From the NCBI GenBank assembly GCA_044892525.1, contig CM097885.1:31250001-31314000 (forward strand): a stretch of DNA of 64,000 nucleotides, written 5' to 3'. Source of the stretch: Schmidtea polychroa. Lineage: Eukaryota. This document shows, piece after piece, positions 8,431-24,908 of this stretch (positions within the stretch are counted from its first letter, which is position 1; the number at the start of each line of letters is the position of its first letter). The notes under the pieces are model-generated. The model was given only the letters and a program-made list of their open reading frames with translations. It was not told the origin of the DNA and ran no database searches. The position numbers were made by a program, and so were the translations under genes.

Positions 8431-9275
8431 AAAGATTTTACGACAATAGATGGCGGCGTTATTGGAACGGTTTATTAAACAGTTTATAATTATTGTTTAT
8501 CTATCTATAGTTAACTATAGTTAAACAAAAAATACTTTTGCATTCCTTTGTTTTAATGTACTTACTCGTTTATTTGTTTTACTTTTTATTTATAAAAATA
8601 TACTTTGTCTTTGTGAATTCATCTCTAAATATTCAATTTTGAGTTTTAATTAATTATTTAATATGTAAAATGGGTTAGATCGCAAAATACGGCCTTTTTT
8701 CAAAATAAGAATTTGAATTATTTATTTATTTAATCCCTATGTCAATATATTTAAAAATTTCAGGAAAGAGAGCTCTTGGAGAATATGAAATAATAGATAT
8801 TTTACAGAATACTGGCTTTTTAAAAACGCAAGTTAATTGTGAAAATTGCACAATTTTTTTGGGTCTACAGGTGTATAACGCGCACCTTGATGGCTTTAAT
8901 TTTAGGTGAAATTCATGCACGAATAAATCATCTATCAGAATTGGATCTATTCTGAGTAATTCAAAGCTTAGTTTAAGCAAAGTCTTGAGTCTAATTTATA
9001 GGTTTTCCCATGAAATACTTGTTGTTGTTGATACCGGTTTGGAACCCGGTACAACTAATATAATATATTTTTAGAGAGGCTCTAGAAAATCATGAAAAGG
9101 CTAATTTTGAAAATCTCGGTGGAGAAAATCACAAGGTGCAGATTGACGAGATTGTCATCTCCAAAAAGAAAATATAACAGAGGTAGAGTGTTGCCTCAAC
9201 AGTGGTTTTTTGGCGCAATAGATATCATTTCAAATCATTGTATTTTACGATGCATAGATAATAGAAGTAGAGAAA

Positions 9276-10829
9276 AGTAGTAGGATTGGGGCTCCCCAGA
9301 TCAGGAGCTCCCCGCATCACATATACCCCCTCCCCCCCCCCCCCGGGAAAAAATTTTTTTTTTAAAAAATAAAAGGTCAAGGTCATTTATTTTTTTTTTT
9401 TATTTAATTTTTTGTTTTAATTAAGTGATCTGGCGGGCTCCTACTTTTTTTCATCCCAAAAATTAATGTTCCCGCCAACGGACTTTATTGGACGATACCT
9501 CATCTTAAAGCTCAGTCCAAGACCTTTCGAATGAGCTATAGGTATCATATATATCCTTAATAGTTTTAATGTTATTAACAATTGATGACCACCATCTTTT
9601 CAACGTTAAATTATTATTATTTTCCAAAATATTATTAAGTGATCTGGCGGGCTCACACTTTTTTTTCATCCCAAAAATTAATGTTCCCACCAACAGATTT
9701 TATTGACCGATACCTCATCTTAAAGCCCAGTCCAAGACCTTTCGAATGAGCTATAGGTATCATATATATCTTTAATAGTTTTAATGTTATTAACATTTGA
9801 TGACCACCATCTTTTCAACGTTAAATTATTATTATTATTCAAAATATTATTAATTGGCCGGGCGGGGACATACTTTTTCTCATCCCAAAAATTAATGTTG
9901 CCATTATTCGAATTTATTAATCGATAGCTTATTTTGAAGCGTAGTCTAAGACCTTTCAATTGAGCCATAGAAGGTATCATCATCATTAACATCGGCAAAG
10001 TTATTAAAGTTTTACCGAGACCATTTTTCAAGGTCATTTATTTTTCAAAATATTATTTTCAAGGTCAAGGTCAAGGTCATTTATTTTTTCAAGGTCATTT
10101 ATTTTTTCAAGGTCATTTATTTTTTCAAGGTCATTTATTTTTTCAAGGTCATATTTTAAAATTTAAATGTACAGAGTTCCCGACAACGATAATTATTCAA
10201 CGATAGCTCATTTTAAAGCCCAATGCAAGACCTTTCGATTGATTCATAGAAGGTATCATCATCATTATTATTGACAAAGTTATTAACAATTGATGACCAC
10301 CATCTTTTCAACGTTAAATTATTATTATTTTCCAAAATATTATTAATTGGCCGGGAGGGCCCCTACTCTTTTTCATCCCAAAAATTAATGTTCCCATTAT
10401 CCGAATTTATTGGACGATACCTCATCTTAAAGCTCAGTCCAAGACCTTTCGAATGAGCCATAGAAGGTATCATCATCATTAATATTAACAAAGAGAATGA
10501 CTCACCCAATGACTCACCCAACGATGTCTAATATTTTTAGAACGATGACTCATCAAGGTCATTCCCAAGGTCATATGACTCATCAAGGTCAAGGTCATTT
10601 TTTTTTTAATTTAATTTTTTGTTTTAATTAAGTAATCTTTTTATTTTCAAGGTCATTTAATTTTCAAGGTCATTTAATTTTCAAGGTCATTTAATTTTTC
10701 AAGGTCATTTAATTTTCAAGGTCATTTACTTTTCAAGGTCATTTAATTTTTCAAGGTCATTTATTAAAATAATTATTATTTTCTAAGTTTTTAGTTTCTA
10801 AGTTTTATTATTATTATTATTATTATTAT
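9276..10829 (+). repeat. Left terminal inverted repeat (~1.55 kb) of ~214-bp degenerate units plus TCAAGGTCA/TGACTCA arrays
   Basis: Reverse complement of 22601-23953 apart from one extra ~214-bp unit and one extra 17-bp unit; looser homology continues inward to ~10960. Confidence 0.93.
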
Positions 10830-10831
10830 CA

Positions 10832-10965
10832 TATATACACCGAGTCTATCCGACAAGATATTCTGTCTCCCTATGGGTATTGCTAGCAAGGGTACTACTC
10901 ACATTCAACAAGTCACAAATGTACTACTCACACTCAACAAGTCACATGGGTACTGTTCACAAAGC
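10832..10965 (+). repeat. Conserved ~65-bp motif (TATATAC..AGTCTATCCGACAAGATATTCTGTCYCCCTATGGGTA) followed by 29-bp tandem units
   Basis: Further copies on - at ~19335-19420, ~21210-21301, ~22470-22591 and on + at ~63440-63505. Confidence 0.85.
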
Positions 10966-11027
10966 TACTGGTAAAAATATTCAAGACAAAACTTTCTAAA
11001 TTCTAAATATTATTCTTTAAATATACA

Positions 11028-11386
11028 CTAAAATTTATTAACACATTCACATTCATCATCTCCACAGTTCATAACATTTTCAACAACATGATCTATACAA
11101 TCCCTATATACACACGGTTCAGTATCCGTAAATTCCTCCATAGGTTCATCAATTTCTTGAATGCTTTCCTCATCATCTTGAGTGTTTTCTTCATCTGTTT
11201 CATCAAATTCCGAATCTTCACTCTCTGCTACCCAGTCTATATTTAATGCGTTTGTAACAGATAATATATCCGCCATTTTCACACCAGATATTTCTGCTAA
11301 TTTTTCCAATAAAAAGTTTATTATAAATTCTAAATATTAAATAATTCGATAATTAACTAATCATATTAACCTTTTTCTGTAGTCAT
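11028..11386 (-). CDS. Polinton small acidic protein of unknown function; exons 11386-11371 and 11329-11028
   Basis: ATG ACT ACA GAA AAA G|GTTAAT...TTTAG|AA TTT: a 41-bp intron joins in frame to give MTTEKEFIINFLLEKLAEISG...; D/E-rich middle and Cys-containing C-terminus. Confidence 0.7.
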
Positions 11387-11482
11387 TATTAGTATTTTAA
11401 AACTATAGTATATATTTGTTTATAGAAAATATAGAATATAAGCGAAAACAAATATGACTAAATACATTTATTAAATACAACA

Positions 11483-11902
11483 TTAAAATAACTGTGAAAG
11501 TCTAGCAGACATAATTTTCCAAATTGGAGAATACACATCATTATTATCAACTTTATATCCTTGGATTGTAATTGTTATATACCAATTTTCGTTTTCTTTG
11601 AAACTGATTTCATCAAAGGAATCATAAAATTTTGCATATCGGTTGTTGAAAAATGCATTTTGATTGCATGATAGATTCGTATTCAACCTTTTGAAAACAT
11701 CATCTATGGTTTTAATATCTAACATTGAAAGCGTGCCGGTTAAGAATTGAAATTGGGTAGGAATTAGCTTGATCGGTGACACCAATTTCATATTGATTTC
11801 TTCTTTTAAAAAATACATTTTGTAGTTGTGGAACATTTGAACAGGTTGTACAAGTTCTGGAACTACTTTTGGTTTTTCAGTGCTTGAAATTTTCTTGGTC
11901 AT
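11483..11902 (-). CDS. Polinton hypothetical protein (139 aa)
   Basis: Intact ORF with upstream TATAAAA and CCAAT boxes; no family recognised with certainty. Confidence 0.75.
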   Translation of the reverse strand: MTKKISSTEKPKVVPELVQPVQMFHNYKMYFLKEEINMKLVSPIKLIPTQFQFLTGTLSMLDIKTIDDVFKRLNTNLSCNQNAFFNNRYAKFYDSFDEISFKENENWYITITIQGYKVDNNDVYSPIWKIMSARLSQLF

Positions 11903-11935
11903 TGTGAATTATGATTAAAATGAAATGGTATAGGG

Positions 11936-11969
11936 TTTTTATACCTATGACTATTGTTTATCATCCAAT
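11936..11969 (-). promoter_or_regulatory. Pol II-type core promoter (TATA box plus CCAAT box) for the 139-aa gene
   Basis: Minus strand reads CTGATTGG...GGTATAAAAACC; TATA box at 11943-11936, ~40 bp upstream of the ATG at 11902. Confidence 0.55.
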
Positions 11970-12010
11970 CAGATTGCAGTATGTTTTTGTTTTAATTGAA
12001 TGATAAATAA

Positions 12011-12475
12011 TTAATTAAGTGATAATAAAAAATCTAAAAATTCTTTTCCTTCAATTATTGATTTAATTTCAGATATGATATTATCAACTATACTTTTGTA
12101 TTCAATATTTTTTATTCCAAGAATTACTATCTTACCGCTAGCGAATATATTTACACACATAGGGTTATATTTTATATATCTCAAAGCTGGAAATAATTCT
12201 GGTTCATAAAAGCATGGTATTAATTTAGCTAATTTATTTAAATTACAAGAAAAACCTATATCGGAAGTTACGGTTATCGATTGTATTTCTAAATCATAAA
12301 CATTATATTCACTAGCTTTGATTATTTCCTTACACCCCATAATTCTACATTTACCAGTTTTGAAATATATTATTGGATATTTATTACTTCTATTGATAAG
12401 TTGTTGTGGTTTCCCTATTGGAAATACCATTTTTGATACATCAGTTTTTGCCCTGTAATTTATATTTGAAAGCAT
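12011..12475 (-). CDS. Virus-encoded TATA-binding protein (TBP)-like protein, core domain only
   Basis: Two TBP repeats: LSNINY...IIYFKTGKCRIMGCK and EIQSITVTSDIGFSCNLNKLA...FYEPELFPALRY...VNIFASGKIVILGIK (canonical TBP has YEPELFPGLIYR and LLIFVSGKVVLTGAK). Confidence 0.9.
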   Translation of the reverse strand: MLSNINYRAKTDVSKMVFPIGKPQQLINRSNKYPIIYFKTGKCRIMGCKEIIKASEYNVYDLEIQSITVTSDIGFSCNLNKLAKLIPCFYEPELFPALRYIKYNPMCVNIFASGKIVILGIKNIEYKSIVDNIISEIKSIIEGKEFLDFLLSLN

Positions 12476-12579
12476 TTTAATGAAATAATTTTAAAAACTT
12501 TGATATATATAGGTATTTAAAAACAGAGTTCATTTAAATTATCAATATAAACAATAATTATATAGTTTAAATTTAAAAA

Positions 12580-13218
12580 ATGGAATTACGAAATGATGCA
12601 GTATACCAAATCGTTGGTCCAAGTGGTAGCGGGAAAACTTTATTTGTTTGTAAATTACTAAAATCAAATTTGTTTAAAACAAAATTCAACAATATTTATT
12701 GGCATAGGGGCGCCGACGAAGAACACGGATTGACGCAATCAAGTTTCTGTCAGTTGAAAAACATGAAAATAGTAAAGGGCTTTGATAAAAACTGGTCAAG
12801 TCGTTTGAAGAAAGATGATGTCATCATTATCGATGATTTGTATCAAGAAGCCAATAAAGAAAAGGACTTTAATAATTTATTCACAAAAATCAGCAGACAT
12901 GTTGGTGTAACAGTTATTTTCATAACACAAAATCTATTTCATCAAGGTGGTGCACATCGAACACGTAATTTAAATGTACAATATTTAGTTATTTTCAAGA
13001 ATCCTAGAGATGCAACTGTCATTGATTTTCTTGGACGACAAGCATACCCTAATAACCGTAATTTTCTTATCAGTGCATTTCAAGATGCCACGAAAATACC
13101 GCATGGGTATATATTTCTCGATTTCACACAACAATGCCCTGATGATATACGGGTAAAAACAGATATTTTCAACCCAAAAGGTGCCATGGTATATAAACAA
13201 AGTTCAAAACAAAGTTGA
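12580..13218 (+). CDS. FtsK-HerA/A32-like genome packaging ATPase
   Basis: Walker A GPSGSGKT, Walker B IIIDD, ITQNLF and YLVIFKNPRD motifs typical of Polinton ATPases. Confidence 0.95.
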   Translation: MELRNDAVYQIVGPSGSGKTLFVCKLLKSNLFKTKFNNIYWHRGADEEHGLTQSSFCQLKNMKIVKGFDKNWSSRLKKDDVIIIDDLYQEANKEKDFNNLFTKISRHVGVTVIFITQNLFHQGGAHRTRNLNVQYLVIFKNPRDATVIDFLGRQAYPNNRNFLISAFQDATKIPHGYIFLDFTQQCPDDIRVKTDIFNPKGAMVYKQSSKQS

Positions 13219-13231
13219 AAACATATAAATC

Positions 13232-13726
13232 ATGTTTTCAAAAACAAGGATATCGGGTAAAAAACAACCAAAAGTTCCACCAACAACTAGTTATACTCCA
13301 TCTAAAGATCTTATTACAGAAAATTTTCCTGCAATGAATCTTATTTCGAAAAATCCTAAACCTAAACCAAAAAGTAAAACCACAAAGAAAGTAAAAGTTG
13401 TTAAAAATCATCGGAGTTTCCCGTTTTTCAATACATTGTTAAAGGCACCAAGTATGAAAAGAAACAGTATTTTGCAATCATTTCCAAATTATGTTGTCGA
13501 TGATTTACTCGATATTATACTTAAAGTAGTCAAAGGCAAGATTAAAATCAGTAAATCTAAAAAGCAATTATTGAGTAAACATAGGAAACCTTTGCTATCA
13601 TTAGTAAATAATAAAAATCGTCAACAAATGAGAAAAATTATATATAAACAACAAGGGGGATTTATCGGTGCATTGATACCTTTAGCAATATCATTATTAG
13701 GTGGAATAATAGGAAGTCGATCATAA
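13232..13726 (+). CDS. Basic Polinton protein with an adenovirus pX-like hydrophobic C-terminus
   Basis: Lys-rich body; ends QQGG|FIGALIPLAISLLGGII, resembling the adenoviral pX GG|xLPxLIPxI cleavage and hydrophobic tail. Confidence 0.8.
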   Translation: MFSKTRISGKKQPKVPPTTSYTPSKDLITENFPAMNLISKNPKPKPKSKTTKKVKVVKNHRSFPFFNTLLKAPSMKRNSILQSFPNYVVDDLLDIILKVVKGKIKISKSKKQLLSKHRKPLLSLVNNKNRQQMRKIIYKQQGGFIGALIPLAISLLGGIIGSRS

Positions 13727-13729
13727 ACA

Positions 13730-13957
13730 ATGGGTGCTAATCCTTCATTACCAGACATTAAATTTAATATTAAATCTTCTTGTTGTAATGGAGAAGATTT
13801 GGACGAACCCGGAAGACGAAGCCGGTTTTGGTGGAGTGGCAAAATTAAGGAAAAGAGTTCCGAATTCGAAAAAGGAAACACAGAAGTGGTTATCAGACCA
13901 GCTTGCGTACAGTTTGAACAAACCAATGCGGAAACGATTCCCAACAAGAGCATATAA
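13730..13957 (+). CDS. Small, putatively N-myristoylated protein overprinting the integrase 5' end
   Basis: ATG lies 3 nt after the previous stop in AAACAATGG context; MGANPS fits MGxxxS; SSCC could be acylated. Confidence 0.5.
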   Translation: MGANPSLPDIKFNIKSSCCNGEDLDEPGRRSRFWWSGKIKEKSSEFEKGNTEVVIRPACVQFEQTNAETIPNKSI

Positions 13958-14843
13958 AACATATGGAATAAATGATTTATGGCAAATGGATTTGATGGAG
14001 ATGATACCCTATTCGAAAATTAACAATGGGTATAAATATATTTTAACATGTATTGATGTATTCAGTCGGTTTGCCCGAGCAATACCCGTCAAGGCAAAAT
14101 CTGCAGATGAAATGTCCAAAGCTGTTAATCATTTATTTAAAGACGGACATCCTAAAAACTTGCAAACTGATTTAGGTATTAATATTATTATTTTTATTAT
14201 TATTATTATTATTTTAGGTAAAGAATTCTACAACAGTAAAGTCAAGCAAATCCTCATTAAATTGAAAATAAACCATTACTCAGTACATTCTCAATACAAA
14301 GCTGCTCATGTTGAAAGATTTAACCGAACTTTGAGAGATAGATTAAAGAAATTATTCGTGCATCAAGGTAATAAAAAATGGGTATTGGTTTTACCAAAAA
14401 TAATAACCAGTTATAATCACTCATCACATCAAGGACTGAATGGATTAAGGCCGATTGATATCACGTCAAAAACAATCTATTCTAAAAAACCTGAAAAAAT
14501 TACAAAACCGAAATATAAAGTAGGTGACCATGTTAGAATTAGTAAAATTAGTGCATCACCATTTATTAAAAATTTCGATACAAATTGGAGTGATGAAGTC
14601 TTTGTAATTTCAAAAATAAATACTAAACAGAATCCTGTAATGTATGTCATCAAAGATAATGATAACAATATTGTACAAGGAAAATTTTATGAGCAGGAAT
14701 TACAAGTTATTCCTCCCCCAAAAGTATTTAGAATTCAGAAGATTTTGAAAACTAAAAATAAAGGCAAGGATAAACAATACTATGTCAAATGGCATGGTTA
14801 TCAAAACCCATCATGGATATCAGAAAAGGATCTAGTAAAGTGA
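13788..14843 (+). CDS. Polinton RVE (DDE) integrase with C-terminal chromodomain-like region; 42-bp intron at 14176-14217
   Basis: LWQMDL, CIDVFSRF, QTDLG|KEF after removing GTATT...TTTAG, AAHVERFNRTL, YKVGDHVRIS, NWSDEVF, YYVKWHGY; likely start MEKIWTNP at 13788. Confidence 0.95.
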   Translation: MEKIWTNPEDEAGFGGVAKLRKRVPNSKKETQKWLSDQLAYSLNKPMRKRFPTRAYKTYGINDLWQMDLMEMIPYSKINNGYKYILTCIDVFSRFARAIPVKAKSADEMSKAVNHLFKDGHPKNLQTDLGINIIIFIIIIIILGKEFYNSKVKQILIKLKINHYSVHSQYKAAHVERFNRTLRDRLKKLFVHQGNKKWVLVLPKIITSYNHSSHQGLNGLRPIDITSKTIYSKKPEKITKPKYKVGDHVRISKISASPFIKNFDTNWSDEVFVISKINTKQNPVMYVIKDNDNNIVQGKFYEQELQVIPPPKVFRIQKILKTKNKGKDKQYYVKWHGYQNPSWISEKDLVK

Positions 14844-15856
14844 ATTTTTATACTATTTTACCAAGCAATAGTTGCCCGCTTATTCATCCAGATAATCAAG
14901 CCAGTAAATTCATGGTCAATCTCCAGAATCCGATTTCTTTAAATGGGGACTGGGAAGTTGCACTGCAAGATTTTACATTCGTGTACAATACATTCCCATT
15001 TTATAGTCAATGTAAGATTGATTTCAAAAGGAATGCTATGAAAACATGTAGTGGTATCTTTATTATCAGTAATTATGATAAAACATATCATATTCCGAAT
15101 CAAATATTAGATCAGCACTGCTCTATGTTTTACAAGGATGGATTAAATATCAGTTGTGATTTTAAACCATTTACAATAACATTCGAATATATTGAAGATG
15201 CCAGACGAATGGGTTGCAATAAGTTGAAAAATGAAGTTATGGAAACAGAATATTTATTACGCTTTGATCTATTTGAAGCAAACAGTGTAATGAGAGAAGA
15301 AATCAAAATATCAGTGTCGTATAATAATGAAGTTGAAGAATCATTCACCTTCGCTGACGAATTATATATTGATAAACTTGATGTGTTACTTAAATATTTA
15401 AAGTATAATTGTTCACACATATTTAAAAGTTTGGACATTGTGAAAGATTTGTTATTTACCTTCAGTTTGAATGATGACATTTGCGAAGTTACATTTGATA
15501 AAAATTTGACAAATACACTTGGATTAGAGAAGCAGCAATATCGGGAAAAATCGGCTGGTATACGTAAACCAAGAATACTTGAACATCATCAACAAATGTT
15601 CATATATACTAATATTATTGAGCCTATAATAGTTGGTGATTCCAGTGTTCCTCTATTGAAATCGGTGTGGATTGGAAAATATGAACATGATGAAGTTGTC
15701 AATATAAATATAGATAATCCCATGTATTTACCAATTTCAAGCTCATGTATAAACAATATAGAAATAAATATTCGTGACGATAGTGGAAAACTTATAAACT
15801 TCCCAAAAGACTCAAAAACTCATTTGACACTACATTTTCGTAAAGTAGATGGCTAA
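14813..15856 (+). CDS. Minor capsid protein (penton)
   Basis: FYTILPSNS..PDN..F...L..PISL.GDWEVAL N-terminus; MFIYTNIIEPIIVGD..VPLL...YLPI...IEINIRD..G...LTLHFRK C-terminus. Start is 14789 or 14813. Confidence 0.88.
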   Translation: MDIRKGSSKVNFYTILPSNSCPLIHPDNQASKFMVNLQNPISLNGDWEVALQDFTFVYNTFPFYSQCKIDFKRNAMKTCSGIFIISNYDKTYHIPNQILDQHCSMFYKDGLNISCDFKPFTITFEYIEDARRMGCNKLKNEVMETEYLLRFDLFEANSVMREEIKISVSYNNEVEESFTFADELYIDKLDVLLKYLKYNCSHIFKSLDIVKDLLFTFSLNDDICEVTFDKNLTNTLGLEKQQYREKSAGIRKPRILEHHQQMFIYTNIIEPIIVGDSSVPLLKSVWIGKYEHDEVVNINIDNPMYLPISSSCINNIEINIRDDSGKLINFPKDSKTHLTLHFRKVDG

Positions 15857-16211
15857 TTCCGATATTATTAGTATGTATAGTGATAGCCAATCTGGTGGTG
15901 AATTACCATATTTTATTGGTAAACAGTATGGATCAGGTTGGTTAAAAACAATAGGGAGATTTGCACTTCCCATTCTTAAACGTATTGGTAGTTTTGGCAT
16001 GAAAACTGCTAAAGATGTGATTATGAATGAACAGAAAATATTACCATCCCTAAAAACAAATGCTTTAGCGGAGTTAGGGAAGGTTCTACCTGGAGTTGCT
16101 GGTATGTTTCAAAAAGATACGCCTCCAGCCCCAGCTCCAAAACGTAAAGGGCATGGAATATCGCGTATAAACAAACGAATGAAAGGACATGGAACTATAT
16201 TTGCAAAATGA
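15849..16211 (+). CDS. Small basic Polinton core-like protein
   Basis: QSGGELPYFIGKQYGSG..IGRFALPILK pattern and basic tail with GxG motifs; lies between the minor and major capsid genes with overlapping start/stop codons. Confidence 0.8.
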   Translation: MANSDIISMYSDSQSGGELPYFIGKQYGSGWLKTIGRFALPILKRIGSFGMKTAKDVIMNEQKILPSLKTNALAELGKVLPGVAGMFQKDTPPAPAPKRKGHGISRINKRMKGHGTIFAK

Positions 16212-17431
16212 TTTGTGGTAAATCCGAATTATGTATATTTGATAGACCATCGCCCCAGGCTGTAATAGAATTTGGTGCCTTTGAGGAAGTTTTTCCTATG
16301 AATTCAATTACTGATAGTAGAAATGATATCGAGTTTTATATTAATGGTTCGCAAACTGAATATTTAGATTTGAACGATACTTTATTGACTGTTCAGATCA
16401 AGGTTGTAGATAAAGATAGAAAGGTTTTGGATGCCAATGCGGATGTATTACCAAACAATTTCATGTTTCATACTCTGTTTAAAGATGCAGTGTTGGGATT
16501 TAATAATATCAAGATTGAGGGTGGAAATAATACATTCATTCACAAGGCTTTGATAGAAACTATTTTAAATTACAATTCAGATACTAAAAATACCTGTCTT
16601 ACACCTATGGGTTATGCAGCAGCAGATGATGAAAGAAAAAAGTGGGTTAAAGGCTCAAAAGTATTCACTATGTGCTCATCATTACAACTTGATTTTATGG
16701 ATCAACCGAAATATTTACTACCGGGAGTTAATATACATATTAGACTGAAAAGATCTGATTCTGCATTGTCTCTTACTAGTGCAACTGGTGCACCAATATG
16801 TCAATTAGTTGATGCAAAATTATTGGTGAGAAGAGTTCGAGTAGACCCGTCAGTATTAGCTGGTCATCAATTGGGGCTTAATTCAAAACATGCAATTTAT
16901 CCTTTAAAAACAAAGGAAATTGTACAATTTGCTATTGCTAAAGGTGCTTCATCATTCTATAAAGAACAAATATTTGGTGACAGAAGAATGCCTAATTTTA
17001 TTCTGGTAACATTTCAAAGTGAAACGCAATATAATGGATCGTATACTGCTTCCAGCTCAATTTTCAAAAATTTTGGTGTTACTTCATTGACTTTATCGAA
17101 AAATACTGATTATAGAGAAACATATACTCAAGATTTCGAGAATGATAATTACTGTGCGACATATATGCAGAGTATTGTTAGAAATCTAGGTTATTTAGAT
17201 AAAAACTTGAATTGTGGAATAACTCTTGAAGAATTTAAAAGCAAATACCCATTTTTCACATTTGTTCTAGCTCCCGATTTTGATTTAAATCAGAGTCAAT
17301 TACCACAAAACGGGAATTTACGACTGGATATAAAGTTTGCAAAGGCCATTACTGAACCAGTACATGTTATAATATATGGAGTATTTGAAAATGAAGTTCA
17401 AATTACTGCAAATAGAACCGTGCTAGTATAA
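16208..17431 (+). CDS. Major capsid protein (double jelly-roll, Polinton PY type)
   Basis: CGKSELCIF..P..Q, IEFYI.G..TEYLDLNDTLL, PNNFMFHTLF, QPKYLLPGV, HAIYP, GNLRLDIKFA, VIIYGVFENEVQITANR. Confidence 0.92.
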   Translation: MICGKSELCIFDRPSPQAVIEFGAFEEVFPMNSITDSRNDIEFYINGSQTEYLDLNDTLLTVQIKVVDKDRKVLDANADVLPNNFMFHTLFKDAVLGFNNIKIEGGNNTFIHKALIETILNYNSDTKNTCLTPMGYAAADDERKKWVKGSKVFTMCSSLQLDFMDQPKYLLPGVNIHIRLKRSDSALSLTSATGAPICQLVDAKLLVRRVRVDPSVLAGHQLGLNSKHAIYPLKTKEIVQFAIAKGASSFYKEQIFGDRRMPNFILVTFQSETQYNGSYTASSSIFKNFGVTSLTLSKNTDYRETYTQDFENDNYCATYMQSIVRNLGYLDKNLNCGITLEEFKSKYPFFTFVLAPDFDLNQSQLPQNGNLRLDIKFAKAITEPVHVIIYGVFENEVQITANRTVLV

Positions 17432-17459
17432 ATGTATACAGAAACACCAAAAAGTTGTC

Positions 17460-17843
17460 ATGGAGTAAGTTTTTCAATACTGTTTAATTTATTAAAGTAG
17501 TTCTGTTCAGGTCAATAGAATTGGAAAACAGATATTGGGAAATGAATTTGTAGGAGTTTTTCCTCTCGATAAAATCCCATATTTGAGCAATAATCAAGCC
17601 ATAATCGTCAATACTCAATCGTCTCATCTTGGTGGAGAACATTGGATTGCTATATATGTGAAACCTAGTAATATATTCGTGTTCGATCCTATGGGTTTCT
17701 ATTACCCTGCTTTGTTGGTATCAAAACTACAAACAATGGGGAAACCTATTGTATATAATAAAACAATGTTTCAAAATCCCTTGACACAAACATGCGGTCA
17801 ACATTGTTTAGCTTGGTTGTTGTATAAAAAATTTGATGATTAA
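17460..17843 (+). CDS. Adenain-like capsid maturation cysteine protease (spliced)
   Basis: FVGVFPLD, IVNT, GEHWIAI (His), FDPMG (Asp), FQ...TCGQHC (Gln/Cys). Donor GTAAGT at 17465; the acceptor at 17500 gives MDSVQVNRIGK from ATG 17460, while ATG 17432 with the acceptor at 17510 is also in frame. Confidence 0.92.
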
Positions 17844-17873
17844 TAAATGTATTTTGTATCCTTTGTTGTTGTT

Positions 17874-17904
<31 letters not shown>

Positions 17905-20900
17905 TTTTATTATTATTATTATTATTATTTGTGATTTTGAAAGATATATCACGTTATAATTGCTATATAATTAGCTGAATCGATGAAGAATTATGATCAA
18001 TCAATATATTTCATCTCTAGTTAGGTATTTGATGATACATGTGGTTAAATATTGATTTTAGTGAATTTTGATCTTTTAGTGGACTCTTTGAATTTAGATA
18101 CTAAATTATTTCAATGGACGGATGTCTGTAACAAATAAATAAAATTCATATTTTGAAGAATTTTCTATGGATTTTAAGAGAATTGATATATTAAAGGTCT
18201 GATATATTATAGCCGGTTGGAATTAGTGAAGGTTCAGTTAAAATGGTAATATATGATTTTTAAGGGGTGTTTAAAATGATAGAAATATTTGGTGAGGAAT
18301 CGGTTATGGTGGAAATGTTTGAAATCTCTATTTAAATCGACAATGTTCTTATTGGTAAAATTTTAAAGGGAAATAGTCAGTATTTAGCTATGAATTAATA
18401 ATAGTTCCTGTGAAATTATATCGTTTTAGAGGTTTATTAGGTTGTGATGAATGTTATTGCACAGTAATTTAGATTTATGTTTTAGAACCAGTTTTTTATT
18501 AATTATCCATTGTTTTATTAAGTCGTTTAGGGTTAATGATCAATTTACTTGGTTTTCACAATGAAATATTTGAAATCTTTAGAATTAATTGGGATTGATA
18601 TCAAAGGTTATTGCTTTAAATTATTTTACTTAAGAAGTTATTTTATTCATTGTGGGGACATCAGTGACAAAACTTGAGAAATATTGACTTAAAAGTTGGA
18701 AATCGACAACGGCTAAAGAAAATTGATCTTTATTGAAGGAATTTTATGATTTTAATTAGAAATTAAATCGGTTGAATATTAAAGGTAAAATCTATTGAAG
18801 GAATATTATTATCGGATGGATAAATGATATTTTGCTAAATTACCTTTGCTAAATATTATTTTAAATGACTAAAAATAACAAAATTAACCAATATTCATAA
18901 ATTTATCGCACAAAATATCCATGTTTTGGTTACTCAAACATCTTAAATTTCTCGCAAAGATATATTACGTCTAATGATCATCTAATTAAATTAGAAAATA
19001 ATTGTTACTTTATATTTCTAACTAATAAGCCCCTTAATTGGATAAATGATAACCATATTTCTATTATGACTCCTTTAAATATTTTTGCCTCAAACAAATT
19101 TACTCCAAATGATAAAGAATTTAAAATTATCAATGAATAATGACCATGTTTTTCTCATATTATTAACTATTGTAACGAACATTAGATGAATAAATTAATT
19201 TTTGCTTTAAATGACTACAAAGTTAACCAATAAATTAGTCGCTCGACATAAGTGTAAAGTTACATTTAAAATATTCACGAATTTCTGATCATCTCACTAA
19301 ATTACCTAAGAATTTCTAAATGATTAATATAGCCTTGCGACATGTTGAATGTGACCAGTACCCTTGCTAGCAATACCCATAGGGGGACAGAATATTTTGT
19401 CGGATAAACTAGGAGTATATGGTCTTTATTGATATATCAAAATACTGTTATTTATAAATCAACTAAAAATACTCAAAAATACTATATTATTTTACTGAAT
19501 GATACCTTAAATGTTTTTAATATACATATTTCTAAAATAAATCAACAGTTCAAACCAACAACATGTATGGATGACCACCCATTGTTAATTTATTCCCAGT
19601 GTCACGTCCCTCAAAAATACCGTGAGTGTTTTAACAAAACTGAGCTCAAAGAAACTTTCCAGATAACAACTCACCTGAATGTTTTGAACAAAAATGAGCG
19701 AAATTGAGAACAAACGATTAGATGGCGATTAACTTCTGGCCACAACCCTAACAACATGAAAATTAAGATTTTAATTATTGAATTCGTTGTTTACTGCCTG
19801 GAAATACTAACAGAATATTTTTTAATTCAAAGAATCTTCATTATAAATTTTGAATTTAAAAAATTAAATGAAGGATATATAAGTGTACATAAAATTATAA
19901 TATTATATAAAATTATACTATATAATAATGTTAATGTTTAAATATGCTTAAATAACTAAATTGTTTAAATATTTTTAAATAACTAAATTAAATTATTTAA
20001 ATTTAAATTATTTAAATATACTTTTGATATAACTTTATTTCTTTCGTTTTAGTATCCATAAAGTAAGTAAATAAAGAATTTACTACAATATTTTAATTAT
20101 TTTACTTAGTAATGAAGAAAATGAATTATATGATTATGAAGAAGATGAACCAGATAAAATGGTGAAACACTAAATGACTTATGTTCTGGATTTAGAAATT
20201 TCTTATTAAAACATGAATTATAGAAAAAAATGAACCAGACAAAATGGTGAAACATTGCTATGTTCCGGATTTCTTAAATGAATTAGCTGATTGTGGGTGT
20301 CCTTCAACATGAATTATCAGACTTAAATTATGTAAACTTTCAACGATTGTCAAGAAAAATGGGAAAAACCGATGTTTTAGCAATTAGATATTGTAAAGTA
20401 CTACCTGAAGAATATTATTATTAATGTAAGACATGAATTAATTCTTTAAAATATATATATTATATTTAGGTATCTGTGTTTTATGGTGGGAAATGACATT
20501 GAAAAAGTATACCACAAATAACAGTTGCCTAATTTATCAAGCCTGTGACGATAAAATGCTAGATAATGTAAGTTAATTGCTTTTAAATCAATATAAATTT
20601 TAGCAATGATAGTTGACGCCGCATCAGAAACTAAGAAATACGTCCAATTTGCAAGATGTATTCCATGAAATCACTATCAAATGGCCTGATGGAGAGATTA
20701 ATTTTGAGATAGATTACCAACAGAAGAGCGAGAAAAATTTGTAAATTAAATATAATAGGGTTGGGTGGGTCCTCTTTATCCCTTAATTAATATATATTTA
20801 CAAGCTGATCGTCGTGGTGGGCGGTTGTAATCCAACTAGTGGGAGGCCTCTGTAAATATATATTTGTGTTAGTGAAAACATTAATTAATTTGGTTATAGT

Positions 20901-21459
20901 GCCAATGACGCATGTATTTTGAAATTATACGTTTCGAATGTGCTGGTAGTTGACTACCCATGCTAGGCGTAATGTTCCGTACGGAAAACTATAATGCCCA
21001 GGTTCTTCTGACCCCACTTGGGGGAGGCACAGACGACCCTTGTGGACGCGAACAAATATCCACCGTGTCTTTCAGGCACAGATATTTGGTCACTGCTCAT
21101 TAGGCCTGGCAATACTAAATGCATACACTTTGCCTTGTCCTCTCTTGTCTTTATTTTTATCGTTTAAATAGTGTGTGTGATAAGTTTTATTTACTAACCC
21201 TAATTAATATACCCTTGCGATATGTTGAATGTGAGTAGTACCCTTGCTACCATTACCCATAGGGGGACAGAATATCTTGTCGGATAGACTAGGAGTATAT
21301 ACACCCATGTTAAACAAGGTATGTGTATATAGAATGTATGTGTAAAATTATCGCTCCTTATTGAAAATTTCATGTAAAGGCAAACACAGAATACTGCAAA
21401 CATATAATAATACTCTACCCCATAACTTAGTGTGTAAAAATTATTTAAGGTTTTTTCAC

Positions 21460-21526
<67 letters not shown>

Positions 21527-22051
21527 GTTTAATGGGTTGTATATGTGTGTAAAAAATATTTGAGGTTTTCACGAATATTGATAATAATAATGGTTTATGA
21601 GTGTTTTTATGTTTTTGACTAATATTTGCAATAATAATAATGGTTAATGGGTTGTGTGTGTGTGTGTGTAGAAAATATTTTAGGTTTTCACTAATATTGA
21701 TAATAATAATTGTTAGTGGGTTGTGTGAGTGTAAATAATATTTTAGGTTTTTGACTAATATTTGCAATAATAATAATAATAATAATAAGTTTAATGAGTT
21801 GTATGTGTGTGTGTAAAAATATTTTAGGTTTTTAATATTGATAATAATAATAATAATGGTTAATGGGTTGTGTGTGTGTGTAAAAAATATTTTAGGTTTT
21901 CACTAATAATGATAATAATAATGGTTAATGAGTTGTGTGTGTGTGTAGAAAATATTTTAGGTTTTTAATATTGATAATAATAATAATGGTTGAGGGGTTG
22001 TGTGTGTGTGTGTGTAAAAAAAAAAAATATTTTAGGTTTTCACTAATAATG

Positions 22052-22104
<53 letters not shown>

Positions 22105-22105
22105 T
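21460..22105 (+). repeat. Degenerate ~60-bp tandem array inside the Polinton
   Basis: Recurring (AAT)n-GGTTAATGGGTTG(TG)n-TAAAAAATATTTTAGGTTTTCACT units, about 9 copies. Confidence 0.85.
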
Positions 22106-22350
22106 CCCGCGCGTGTTAATATCATTCCCAATAATAATGATGATAATAATTTTTATATATCAGTAGATAGATCTCGCACTGGGCCTTAAAATGAGCTATA
22201 GATCAATAAAATCTGTTGGTGGGAACAATAATTTTTGGGATGAAAAAAAGTAGGTCCCCGCTGGATCACTTAATAATATTTTGAAAAATAATAATAATTT
22301 ATGTGTCATCGTATGAGTCATCGAATGAGTCATCGTTCTAAAAATACATG

Positions 22351-22407
<57 letters not shown>

Positions 22408-22600
22408 TTCTTGGGAGTTGTAATAATAATTCTTTGAAAATATCTTAGTCATTATTAATAATACTAATAATACCCTAGCGAGTTGTTGATTGTGAGCAGT
22501 ACCCTGGTGACTTGTTGAATGTGAGTAGTACATTTGTGTGCAGTACCCATAGGGAGACAGAATATCTTGTCGGATAGACTATGAGTATATAATAATTATA

Positions 22601-22602
22601 AT

Positions 22603-22660
<58 letters not shown>

Positions 22661-23953
22661 CTTAGAAACTAAAAACTTAGAAAATAATAATTATTTTAAT
22701 AAATGACCTTGAAAATTAAATGACCTTGAAAATTAAATGACCTTGAAAATTAAATGACCTTGAAAATTAAATGACCTTGAAAATTAAATGACCTTGAAAA
22801 TAAAAAGATTACTTAATTAAAACAAAAAATTAAATTAAAAAAAAAATGACCTTGACCTTGATGAGTCATATGACCTTGGGAATGACCTTGATGAGTCATC
22901 GTTCTAAAAATATTAGACATCGTTGGGTGAGTCATTGGGTGAGTCATTCTCTTTGTTAATATTAATGATGATGATACCTTCTATGGCTCATTCGAAAGGT
23001 CTTGGACTGAGCTTTAAGATGAGGTATCGTCCAATAAATTCGGATAATGGGAACATTAATTTTTGGGATGAAAAAGAGTAGGGGCCCTCCCGGCCAATTA
23101 ATAATATTTTGGAAAATAATAATAATTTAACGTTGAAAAGATGGTGGTCATCAATTGTTAATAACTTTGTCAATAATAATGATGATGATACCTTCTATGA
23201 ATCAATCGAAAGGTCTTGCATTGGGCTTTAAAATGAGCTATCGTTGAATAATTATCGTTGTCGGGAACTCTGTACATTTAAATTTTAAAATATGACCTTG
23301 AAAAAATAAATGACCTTGAAAAAATAAATGACCTTGAAAAAATAAATGACCTTGAAAAAATAAATGACCTTGACCTTGACCTTGAAAATAATATTTTGAA
23401 AAATAAATGACCTTGAAAAATGGTCTCGGTAAAACTTTAATAACTTTGCCGATGTTAATGATGATGATACCTTCTATGGCTCAATTGAAAGGTCTTAGAC
23501 TACGCTTCAAAATAAGCTATCGATTAATAAATTCGGATAATGGCAACATTAATTTTTGGGATGAGAAAAAGTATGTCCCCGCCCGGCCAATTAATAATAT
23601 TTTGAATAATAATAATAATTTAACGTTGAAAAGATGGTGGTCATCAATTGTTAATAACATTAAAACTATTAAGGATATATATGATACCTATAGCTCATTC
23701 GAAAGGTCTTGGACTGAGCTTTAAGATGAGGTATCGTCCAATAAAGTCCGTTGGCGGGAACATTAATTTTTGGGATGAAAAAAAGTAGGAGCCCGCCAGA
23801 TCACTTAATTAAAACAAAAAATTAAATAAAAAAAAAAATAAATGACCTTGACCTTTTATTTTTTAAAAAAAAAATTTTTTCCCGGGGGGGGGGGGGGAGG
23901 GGGTATATGTGATGCGGGGAGCTCCTGATCTGGGGAGCCCCAATCCTACTACT
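22601..23953 (-). repeat. Right terminal inverted repeat (~1.35 kb)
   Basis: Reverse complement of the left TIR; ends ...CCCAATCCTACTACT. Confidence 0.93.
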
Positions 23954-24908
23954 GAGAAACATTAAGAAATGTTATCCTCGAAACTATAACTGAAGGATAT
24001 ATTGTTCATTCTGATAGATGGACCTCTTATATGAGTATTTTTAGAGAAGAAGTAGGTTTTATATACGAAAATGTGAATCACAGTCAGAATTTTGTGGACC
24101 CAGAAACATGTATCCATACAAATGCGATAGAAAAAGAACTCAAGCAATCGCTAAGAAGAAAATTTCTTCGATCTGAAGAAATCTCGAACTATATCTTACA
24201 GAATTCTGTACCAGGGATAAATATCGTAATAGCAAGAATGGCATGTTTACATTAATTTGTGAAACTTTAAAGCTGGTGAAAACTGATTAAAAAACTTTTT
24301 TAAACATTTGTAAGTTTAAAGTATCTTTTTAAATATTTATTATGTGACTGTTAAGAAATATTTTGAAAAAAGGCTGTATTTTGCGACATAACCGCAAAAT
24401 GATATAAAAGAATTTTAACATAAAATTTACTTATTATTTTTAAGGAAAATATATTATATTAAAAAATAAATTATCTACATCGGACTTTGAATAATTTTTT
24501 CAAGTCATTTATAATTTTAACCAAAATTCAAAAACTAAATTATTTCCGTCACTGTTTTTCTGTAAGTTTCGTTGAAGATACCTAAATAATAAAATTCAAT
24601 AATTATTGAATGAAATAAAATGATCAGGGGGGAATGTATGAAAAGGAGGATGGGTTGTTTCAGAATTCTGAGAAACAAAAAGTGATAAAAAGAAATTGAA
24701 AAAGAAAGAAAAATAACAGAATCAATAAAAGCTAAAAAATGAAATACGACAAGGTCGTTCTTAAGTAACAAGTAAAAAGTGAAGTAAAAAAATAAAGACA
24801 AAATCGAAATTAAATCTGCAAATCTCAATAGCCTGTACGACATAGTAAAAAGGAATCACTGGGGAAACCGAGAGATGGCGTCTCATAAAAATTATATATC
24901 TCCACAGC

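Follow-up and report, generated by a model that had tools for sequence, protein, structure and literature searches.

The Polinton/Maverick insertion and its genes

The window, that is, the whole 64,000-nucleotide stretch of DNA that was analysed, contains a Polinton/Maverick at 9276-23953, recognized by an AGT-type end motif, inverted repeats, a 6-bp duplication and genes for an integrase, an ATPase and a protease. Its limits and genes are as follows.

9270..9275 (no strand): left target-site duplication GAGAAA, 6 bp
9276..23953 (no strand): Polinton/Maverick insertion, 14,678 bp, termini AGTAGTAG; pPolB frame absent from this copy
9276..10831 (+): left terminal inverted repeat, about 1.55 kb, from end-to-end alignment
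11483..11902 (-): conserved element gene, 139 aa, oriented towards the left end
12011..12475 (-): TBP-like gene, likewise oriented towards the left end (PF00352, E 1.2e-15)
12580..13218 (+): packaging ATPase (Pox_A32, E 2e-7)
13788..14843 (+): retroviral-type integrase with chromodomain (rve, E 6e-8)
16208..17431 (+): putative major capsid protein, labelled by its size, its place in the gene order and its 165 unnamed homologues
17432..17837 (+): adenovirus-type protease (Peptidase_C5, E 1e-6), the gene probably interrupted by a small intron
22632..23953 (-): right terminal inverted repeat, from end-to-end alignment
23954..23959 (no strand): right target-site duplication GAGAAA, 6 bp

Alignment of the two inverted repeats showed that the left is longer than the right by one 215-bp unit and one 17-bp unit. 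The 139-aa protein gave no Pfam match and no usable Atlas match, and we take it to be SSB-like from its fold pattern. The capsid-candidate frame likewise gave no Pfam match, the major and minor capsid labels being drawn from size, gene order and unnamed homologues. The window copy has no long frame at 17.9-22.6 kb and no protein-primed DNA polymerase B, and is a non-autonomous derivative. In sister copies whose ends are the same there is a 1388-codon polymerase frame that is 59-66 % identical to PF03175-matching frames, although this frame itself gave no PF03175 match. In place of the polymerase side, the window copy has about 4 kb without long frames (17930-22600), and this frame-poor module is also found doubled and inverted between type A ends of gene-less elements (L029-L032).

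Candidate small introns, unusual for Mavericks, may lie in the integrase gene (14170-14215, a low-complexity in-frame stretch) and the protease gene (17432-17511, a short GT-AG interval). A GC-richer motif with 29-bp repeats occurs four times in the element, just inward of both ends (10823-10961 and 22460-22585) and twice in the non-coding module (19338-19410 and 21205-21300). ARAGORN found no tRNA gene in the element. Each of the 102 matches scored for the capsid protein was 100 % identical, and exact terminus patterns in the genome numbered 647 for type A, the type of the window, and 1,709 for types F and H; judged from its sequences, the window's Polinton family is young and large.

Word arrays in the two ends of the window element

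Both ends carry repeated short words, which are arranged as follows.

9323..9385 (+): C-run, A/T tract and first TCAAGGTCA (9377)
9420..9970 (+): 215-bp tandem units, single-strand folding z -2.7, outside the word arrays
10028..10151 (+): 8 TCAAGGTCA, one single, three at 6-bp pitch and four at 18-bp pitch
10487..10518 (+): ACAAAG and, 10 bp on, a TGACTCA pair at 12-bp pitch
10545..10597 (+): composite block, two ATGACTCAT fused to TCAAGGTCA
10647..10759 (+): 7 TCAAGGTCA at 17-18-bp pitch with A/T spacers
22314..22332 (-): additional AP-1 (TGACTCA) pair, 12-bp pitch, immediately inward of the right end
22704..22797 (-): mirror array, 6 TCAAGGTCA
22847..22957 (-): mirror of the composite block, AP-1 pair and ACAAAG
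23293..23416 (-): mirror array, 8 TCAAGGTCA
23843..23851 (-): mirror of the first TCAAGGTCA

The nuclear-receptor word YCAAGGTCA was counted 20 times on the plus strand of the left end and 19 times on the minus strand of the right end, with only 1 copy elsewhere in the 64 kb, and no YCAAGGYCR is present in the element interior between its two ends. The left-end copies start at 9377, at 8 positions in 10028-10151, at 10553, 10565, 10583 and 10589, and at 7 positions in 10647-10759. TGACTCA occurs four times per end, at 10498, 10510, 10546 and 10576 and, mirrored, at 22946, 22934, 22898 and 22868, and two of the left-end copies are fused to TCAAGGTCA. The counts of the initial annotation (about 20 YCAAGGTCA per inverted repeat, 8 of them at 10028-10151, and four TGACTCA sites with two fusions) were thus correct in number and position. 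Its statement that the arrays are mirrored at about 22700-23415 holds for the mirroring itself, but the inner array of 7 is incompletely matched, with 6 copies on the right. Two elements had been overlooked, namely the first nuclear-receptor word at 9377, which is 101 bp from the terminus, and a third word, ACAAAG at 10488, which lies 10 bp ahead of the first AP-1 word and which we take to be HMG-box-like. The 6-bp pitch of three TCAAGGTCA in 10028..10151 amounts to a direct repeat without spacer, and the composite block also has a CCAAGGTCA positioned 11 bp ahead of the second AP-1 word. The terminus-adjacent order of C-run, A/T tract and TCAAGGTCA was found in end types A, A2, F, G, H and H2 of the genome.

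The arrays had also been described as phased. The even 17-18-bp spacing is real, but pitches of 17 and 18 bp correspond to 1.62 and 1.71 helical turns, which rules out helical phasing; pitches in other end types are 12, 19, 30, 31 and 34-44 bp. A hairpin role for the window arrays was ruled out by single-strand folding (z 0.05, 0.23 and 1.17). Separately, the 215-bp units at 9420-9970 and 10176-10493 and their mirrors form two stems that fold better than shuffles (z -2.7); their number differs between the ends, and they are shared with type G ends at 72 %.

In the comparison with shuffled sequence that the initial annotation had proposed, the words are enriched: the left end has 20 YCAAGGTCA and 4 TGACTCA against shuffle means of 0.065 and 0.065, with a maximum of 2 in 1000 shuffles, and TCAAGGTCA occurs 38 times in the window with 0.42 expected. 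However, the 20 left-end copies stem from tandem duplication, so that shuffle statistics overstate the number of independent events and enrichment alone says little. It is the comparative tests, and not shuffle enrichment, that carry the weight.

The same words across the genome and the constraint on them

Genome-wide, TCAAGGTCA was found 97,461 times versus 3,031 for the reversed control (32-fold) and ATGASTCAT 67,878 times versus 2,876 (24-fold), and TCAAGGCCA was near background (4,195 versus 3,193). Among the first 100 plus-strand matches of TCAAGGTCA, 97 of the 99 inspected by eye fell in Polinton-type ends or inner arrays, these 99 being a non-random sample from the first 0.7 Mb of one contig. 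Most copies of TCAAGGTCA and of the AP-1 motifs in the genome appear to reside in Polinton ends. No matching ends were found outside the genome among viral and metagenome contigs. In viral contigs the capsid query found no relative and the composite word pattern gave 0 matches; a triple-word pattern gave at least 125 stretches there, and the 125 matches in 80 loci listed have spacers in multiples of 3, mostly with a 6-bp period, and were rejected as a different structure. The word pattern occurred in 7 metagenome contigs, and tblastn matched element proteins in none of them. Scattered ATGASTCAT clusters by TCAAGGTCA were seen, with no Polinton genes, in AT-rich eukaryote contigs of marine-type metagenomes (L254, L255, L257-L260).

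Twelve end types, defined by their termini, were compared for shared 9-mers; three entries among them, one each of types I, D and G, are no real array-bearing ends, type D being one locus whose outer terminus was not seen, and type J consists of a short foldback unit. The 9-mers common to the most types were the words TCAAGGTCA, ATGACTCAT and ACAAAGAC, with ATGACTCAT in 8/12 types and TTCAAGGTC, ACAAAGACA and poly-C in 7/12 each, while orders, spacings and orientations vary. The words are therefore conserved in related Polintons, as the initial annotation required, despite poor alignment of the ends: type A, that of the window, has no blastn match to A2 and one of 30 bp only to F. At the loci inspected, other end types consist almost wholly of the three words in changing order, spacing and orientation, and a search of the genome with the AP-1-pair pattern gave 2,542 matches versus 0 in the control. 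Words per end reach about 33 nuclear-receptor and 34 AP-1 words in ends of 0.2-1.6 kb. In type F the medians over 33 ends are 20 for the nuclear-receptor word and 19 for the AP-1 word, with inverted words present, and the corresponding numbers in H and H2 are one and four; F, H and H2 bear their arrays or single modules without intervening 215-bp units. The short type I ends around pPolB-type frames have one TCAAGGTCA about 32 nt from the terminus (11/12 pattern matches, with 1 false member), and the distance from terminus to first host-factor-like word is 78-134 nt in A2, F, H and H2 and 101 nt in the window. The range to be expected of an adenovirus-type origin auxiliary region, about 20-60 bp between host-factor site and protein-primed terminus, includes the type I value. 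Certain spacings are fixed, with ACAAAG lying 10-11 bp from the bZIP word (7 types), the members of a bZIP pair 12 bp apart (7 types) and TCAAGGTCA 11 bp from AP-1 in A, A2 and F. The order from the terminus is also conserved, running from C-run through A/T tract, nuclear-receptor word and ACAAAG to AP-1 pair.

By the 12-type comparison, types B, C and E have neither the nuclear-receptor nor the AP-1 word, indicating that the words are not needed by all Polintons of this genome. Families B and C retain the same gene set, with integrases 71-73 % and capsid proteins 64-78 % identical, and have none of the words. Other bZIP palindromes are swapped in, namely TTACGCAA in C, TTACGTAA in E and pairs of TGACGTCA in foldback J.

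Several further observations were made on these elements. The E array (L053 5200-5500) combines ATTACGTAAT with TAACTGACC and CACGTG, the J array (L123 6480-6900) an TGACGTCA triple with six ATTACGTTGCGG units, and the B array (L040 7900-8200) ATGAGTTAT with TTGCGC. At type I ends (L345/L346, L343, L347, L352) TCAAGGTCA is usually followed by ATATAGGTCA, the elements having polymerase-type frames and no capsid genes, and a target duplication was seen for one insertion. Also present are several palindromic insertions in which normal ends enclose two polymerase frames or arms in inverted orientation (L033, L055/L056 and inverted PF03175 pairs). Related Polintons carry Bcl-2-like and RING-finger genes by Pfam (L040:4775-5209, L096:1780-2271, L041:3327-4409), and two genes of family C are minor-capsid-like. 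Nesting of Polinton-type elements in each other's ends is frequent (L103, L094, L351); a family-C module between A2-type ends (L102/L103), considered as a case of end swapping, proved to be such a nested insertion with unmatched target duplication and was not counted.

Constraint on the words was examined by comparing the two ends of single insertions, where a variant present at both ends was probably in the replicating template, whereas one present at one end only is younger. The AP-1 consensus is RTGASTCAY, its C/G centre being free; the AP-1 words fit it, and the nuclear-receptor words fit YCAAGGTCA. The first set comprised 22 insertions, with 4 false pairs, 1 array-less pair and another 3 pairs from types B, C and E dropped, and was scored against the consensus. 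Changes fell on tolerated positions of the nuclear-receptor word in 23/27 both-end versus 17/35 one-end variants, and of the AP-1 word in 31/37 versus 14/44; counted by distinct contexts, the nuclear-receptor contrast was not significant (12/16, p 0.13) and the AP-1 contrast gave p 0.024. For the second set the prediction was fixed beforehand, and 16 of 20 new pairs were usable, with matching target duplications, after 3 pairs with different target duplications and 1 without terminus were dropped. Here, tolerated nuclear-receptor variants made up 26/29 at both ends versus 12/45 at one end (p 7e-8; distinct contexts 17/20, p 2e-5), with core changes in 1/29 versus 17/45. Tolerated AP-1 variants made up 26/30 versus 20/55 (p 9e-6; distinct contexts 15/19, p 0.003), with core changes in 2/30 versus 30/55. 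This set held 169 intact words of each kind, and the 5-nt spacer of AP-1 pairs took 7 forms among 59 at constant length. Word cores are depleted of inherited changes while spacers vary freely, in data from one genome and one radiation whose inherited variants are non-independent through shared ancestry among copies.

Within the nuclear-receptor word, inherited T>C changes numbered 37 at position 1 and 3 at position 7, versus 12 and 11 at one end only (p 0.0004; by distinct contexts p 0.024), a post hoc contrast, and the tolerated set fixed beforehand had wrongly contained C at position 7. The C>G change at the AP-1 centre was found in 24/232 paired versus 2/75 single words (p 0.053), suggesting that it may arise by template switching within palindrome pairs. 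The nuclear-receptor core is hit less than expected by one-end variants too (17/45 versus 30 expected), so that mutation bias may contribute.

These results bear on whether the words could have been multiplied neutrally, with slippage, unequal exchange and palindrome template switching amplifying ancestral words that element copying then spreads. Within one insertion the arrays do differ in length from end to end, the units are short palindromes that overlap, and unrelated AT-rich eukaryote contigs (7) also hold word clusters, all as such an account would have it. By contrast, cores are constant where spacers are free, words persist in ends that can no longer be aligned, words occur in single copy (H, H2 and I) as well as in arrays, and the window arrays have no hairpin potential. 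Neutral churn is already largely refuted and is very improbable as the explanation, and simple slippage alone is ruled out by word conservation, core depletion and the pattern of tolerated changes.

Candidate factors, proposed role and comparison with known systems

The host genome encodes proteins that could read these words. An NR5-like gene (L317) has an ESCKG P-box and an FTZ-F1 box, with SF-1 and NR5A2 as best matches (E 1e-32), and a second NR5-like exon is present (L326). A Jun-like bZIP has JunD as best structure match (E 4e-8) and a Fos-like bZIP has FosB (E 5e-7), in both cases over a short domain. Flatworm binding data are available from schistosome FTZ-F1, from another flatworm class than the host, which in gel shifts bound TCAAGGTCA, CCAAGGTCA and a no-spacer direct repeat and did not bind CCAAGGCCA (2/2 probes) or CCGAGGTCA (PMC8673669 S4 table). 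Mouse NR5A2, according to the available text of PMC8451941, prefers C at position 7. The nuclear-receptor variants retained in the ends, with C kept at position 1 and lost at position 7, appear to follow the flatworm FTZ-F1 pattern, a comparison made post hoc. The link that the initial annotation had drawn to a host nuclear receptor and AP-1 is borne out to this extent, that the tolerated changes fit NR5/FTZ-F1 and AP-1 and that the host has NR5-, Jun- and Fos-like candidates. The motifs assigned to planarian factors are unverified, and a motif by itself is no demonstration of regulation, as the available part of PMC10558129 points out.

It was further supposed that the arrays possibly work with the viral TBP, for which we found no support. 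Each end has 0 ATAAAC boxes, whereas 17 lie in the interval separating the ends, including those at 12547, 13193, 13723, 14770, 15794 and 16167, which are 19-65 nt ahead of the packaging, core, integrase and capsid frames, and B and C ends lack the words though their elements carry the TBP gene.

We consider it likely, from the sequence comparisons, that the ends carry multiplied conserved words serving as sites for host FTZ-F1/NR5, AP-1 (Jun/Fos) and an HMG-box protein that switch the element on. Bound host factors would open the element ends and activate it, selection on the words would act in the element's replicative phase, and tandem duplication would supply word copies that factor binding preserves, with more copies giving a stronger or more cooperative response. 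The end-adjacent genes (the 139-aa gene, the TBP-like gene and the polymerase) point towards the ends at the loci inspected, indicating that the arrays are not core promoters. Such a pad, resembling an adenovirus inverted terminal repeat, could have two jobs: with a somewhat better than even chance it would be a distal enhancer for outward-pointing early genes, and with a chance a little short of even it would assist, as an auxiliary region, the protein-primed replication that starts at the adjacent terminus.

The words could instead be sites of an element-encoded protein (terminal protein-polymerase, integrase or a small protein) in replication, integration or packaging, their likeness to host motifs being partly chance. 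This would account for words that are symmetric at both ends and for the single word that minimal ends keep close to the terminus at a constant distance; purifying selection is expected under any binder, several small element proteins are unannotated, and several element proteins without known fold could bind DNA. We regard it as decidedly unlikely, given that three different words each equal a full host consensus, that tolerated changes track host-factor specificity and that families B and C, with the same gene set, are without any of the words; Pfam scans of 26 element frames (10 of the window, 16 of relatives) detected no bZIP, nuclear-receptor or HMG domain and hence no matching DNA-binding domain.

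Host factors might also bind as another receptor or bZIP dimer, or bind for silencing, latency, nuclear positioning or small-RNA transcription of folded units. In the available text of PMC8451941, TCAAGGTCA is the ERR consensus as well; in the host, matches number at least 13 for bZIP and 53 for zinc fingers; type A arrays flank 215-bp folding units; and genes face the ends, not away from them. However, the position-1 and position-7 pattern fits flatworm FTZ-F1, F, H and H2 arrays or modules have no 215-bp units between them, and ARAGORN reports no tRNA in the element, and we hold this explanation to be unlikely. No ERR-like best match was seen among the 30 of 53 zinc-finger matches inspected, 2 of which were compared with structures, and ERR is a weaker candidate than FTZ-F1.

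If host FTZ-F1, AP-1 and HMG-box factors do switch the element on, control by wounding or JNK, as the initial annotation had it, is plausible by analogy, its sole source being general AP-1 biology. According to the available portions of the sources, planarian Polintons are PIWI-repressed and desilenced during differentiation (PMC8532177), jun-1 is wound-induced (bioRxiv 2022.04.05.487111), and in Drosophila tumours JNK-Fos can induce Ftz-F1, whose motifs co-occur with those of AP-1 (PMC4610234). A doubtful extension is that the ends are evolvable AND-gates for FTZ-F1, AP-1 and HMG-box factors that wake the element in wounded or differentiating tissue, the gate being rewritten in each end type (AP-1, CRE or PAR/C-EBP, with or without FTZ-F1). 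If so, thousands of insertions would have distributed roughly 90,000 FTZ-F1 and 65,000 AP-1 words, some 20-30x background, a number sufficient for a role as injury enhancers scattered through the genome or as a factor sink, which nuclear PIWI would have to keep closed.

The ends would name candidates for the host trigger of Polinton/Maverick activation in animals, and do so in a system amenable to routine knockdown, and they display a cis-regulatory grammar evolving among sister elements. The arrays would offer a mechanism linking desilencing of Polintons as PIWI targets with jun-1 wound induction, and Polinton-borne copies of the motifs would bias studies of regeneration enhancers by motif enrichment, ATAC or ChIP.

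Among known systems, AP-1 is a helper of the polyomavirus origin, and baculovirus homologous regions are palindromic repeats inside a circular genome, with a viral protein as their main binder. The Polinton words, by contrast, are terminal and match host factors. Baculovirus homologous regions resemble the Polinton ends in their tandem repeat units, which are reported to be both enhancer and replication origin (PMC4535591). The exact words TCAAGGTCA and CCAAGGTCA are shared with the NR5A/FTZ-F1 response element bound by the flatworm factor (PMC8673669). Systems of Fos and Ftz-F1 cooperation differ in having scattered sites in host promoters of other species and, as far as the available texts go, no array at a mobile-element end (PMC8673669, PMC8451941, PMC4610234).

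Known Polinton/Mavericks share with the window element AGT-repeat termini, the 6-bp duplication, long inverted ends, integrase, ATPase and protease genes, capsid genes (putative in the window element) and, in its sister copies, pPolB; their accounts, in the available portions, treat end length and terminal motifs and mention no factor-site arrays (PMC8097293, PMC10748475). The window copy differs in the absence of pPolB and the presence of a TBP-like gene. Our literature search, run mostly without subscription papers and Repbase reports, found no factor-site arrays in Polinton ends in the texts available, where a lone remark concerns putative sites in C. elegans.

The closest likeness is to the adenovirus inverted terminal repeat, which in the available text of PMC5717082 comprises a core origin with NFI, NFIII/Oct-1, Sp1 and ATF sites, the NFI and Oct-1 sites aiding replication and the Sp1 and ATF sites aiding transcription. 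Both are linear protein-primed replicons with host-factor words, including a bZIP-type site, within inverted ends by the terminus, and in both replication and transcription roles adjoin, putatively so on the Polinton side. By contrast, the adenovirus repeat has single sites in about 130 bp, whereas Polinton ends have up to about 33 plus 34 words in 0.2-1.6 kb, and they differ further in the factors concerned, in adjacent genes that face the ends, in belonging to an integrated element and in that their sites are candidates drawn from sequence (PMC5717082, available text). Host-factor sites in linear viral ends are thus already known.
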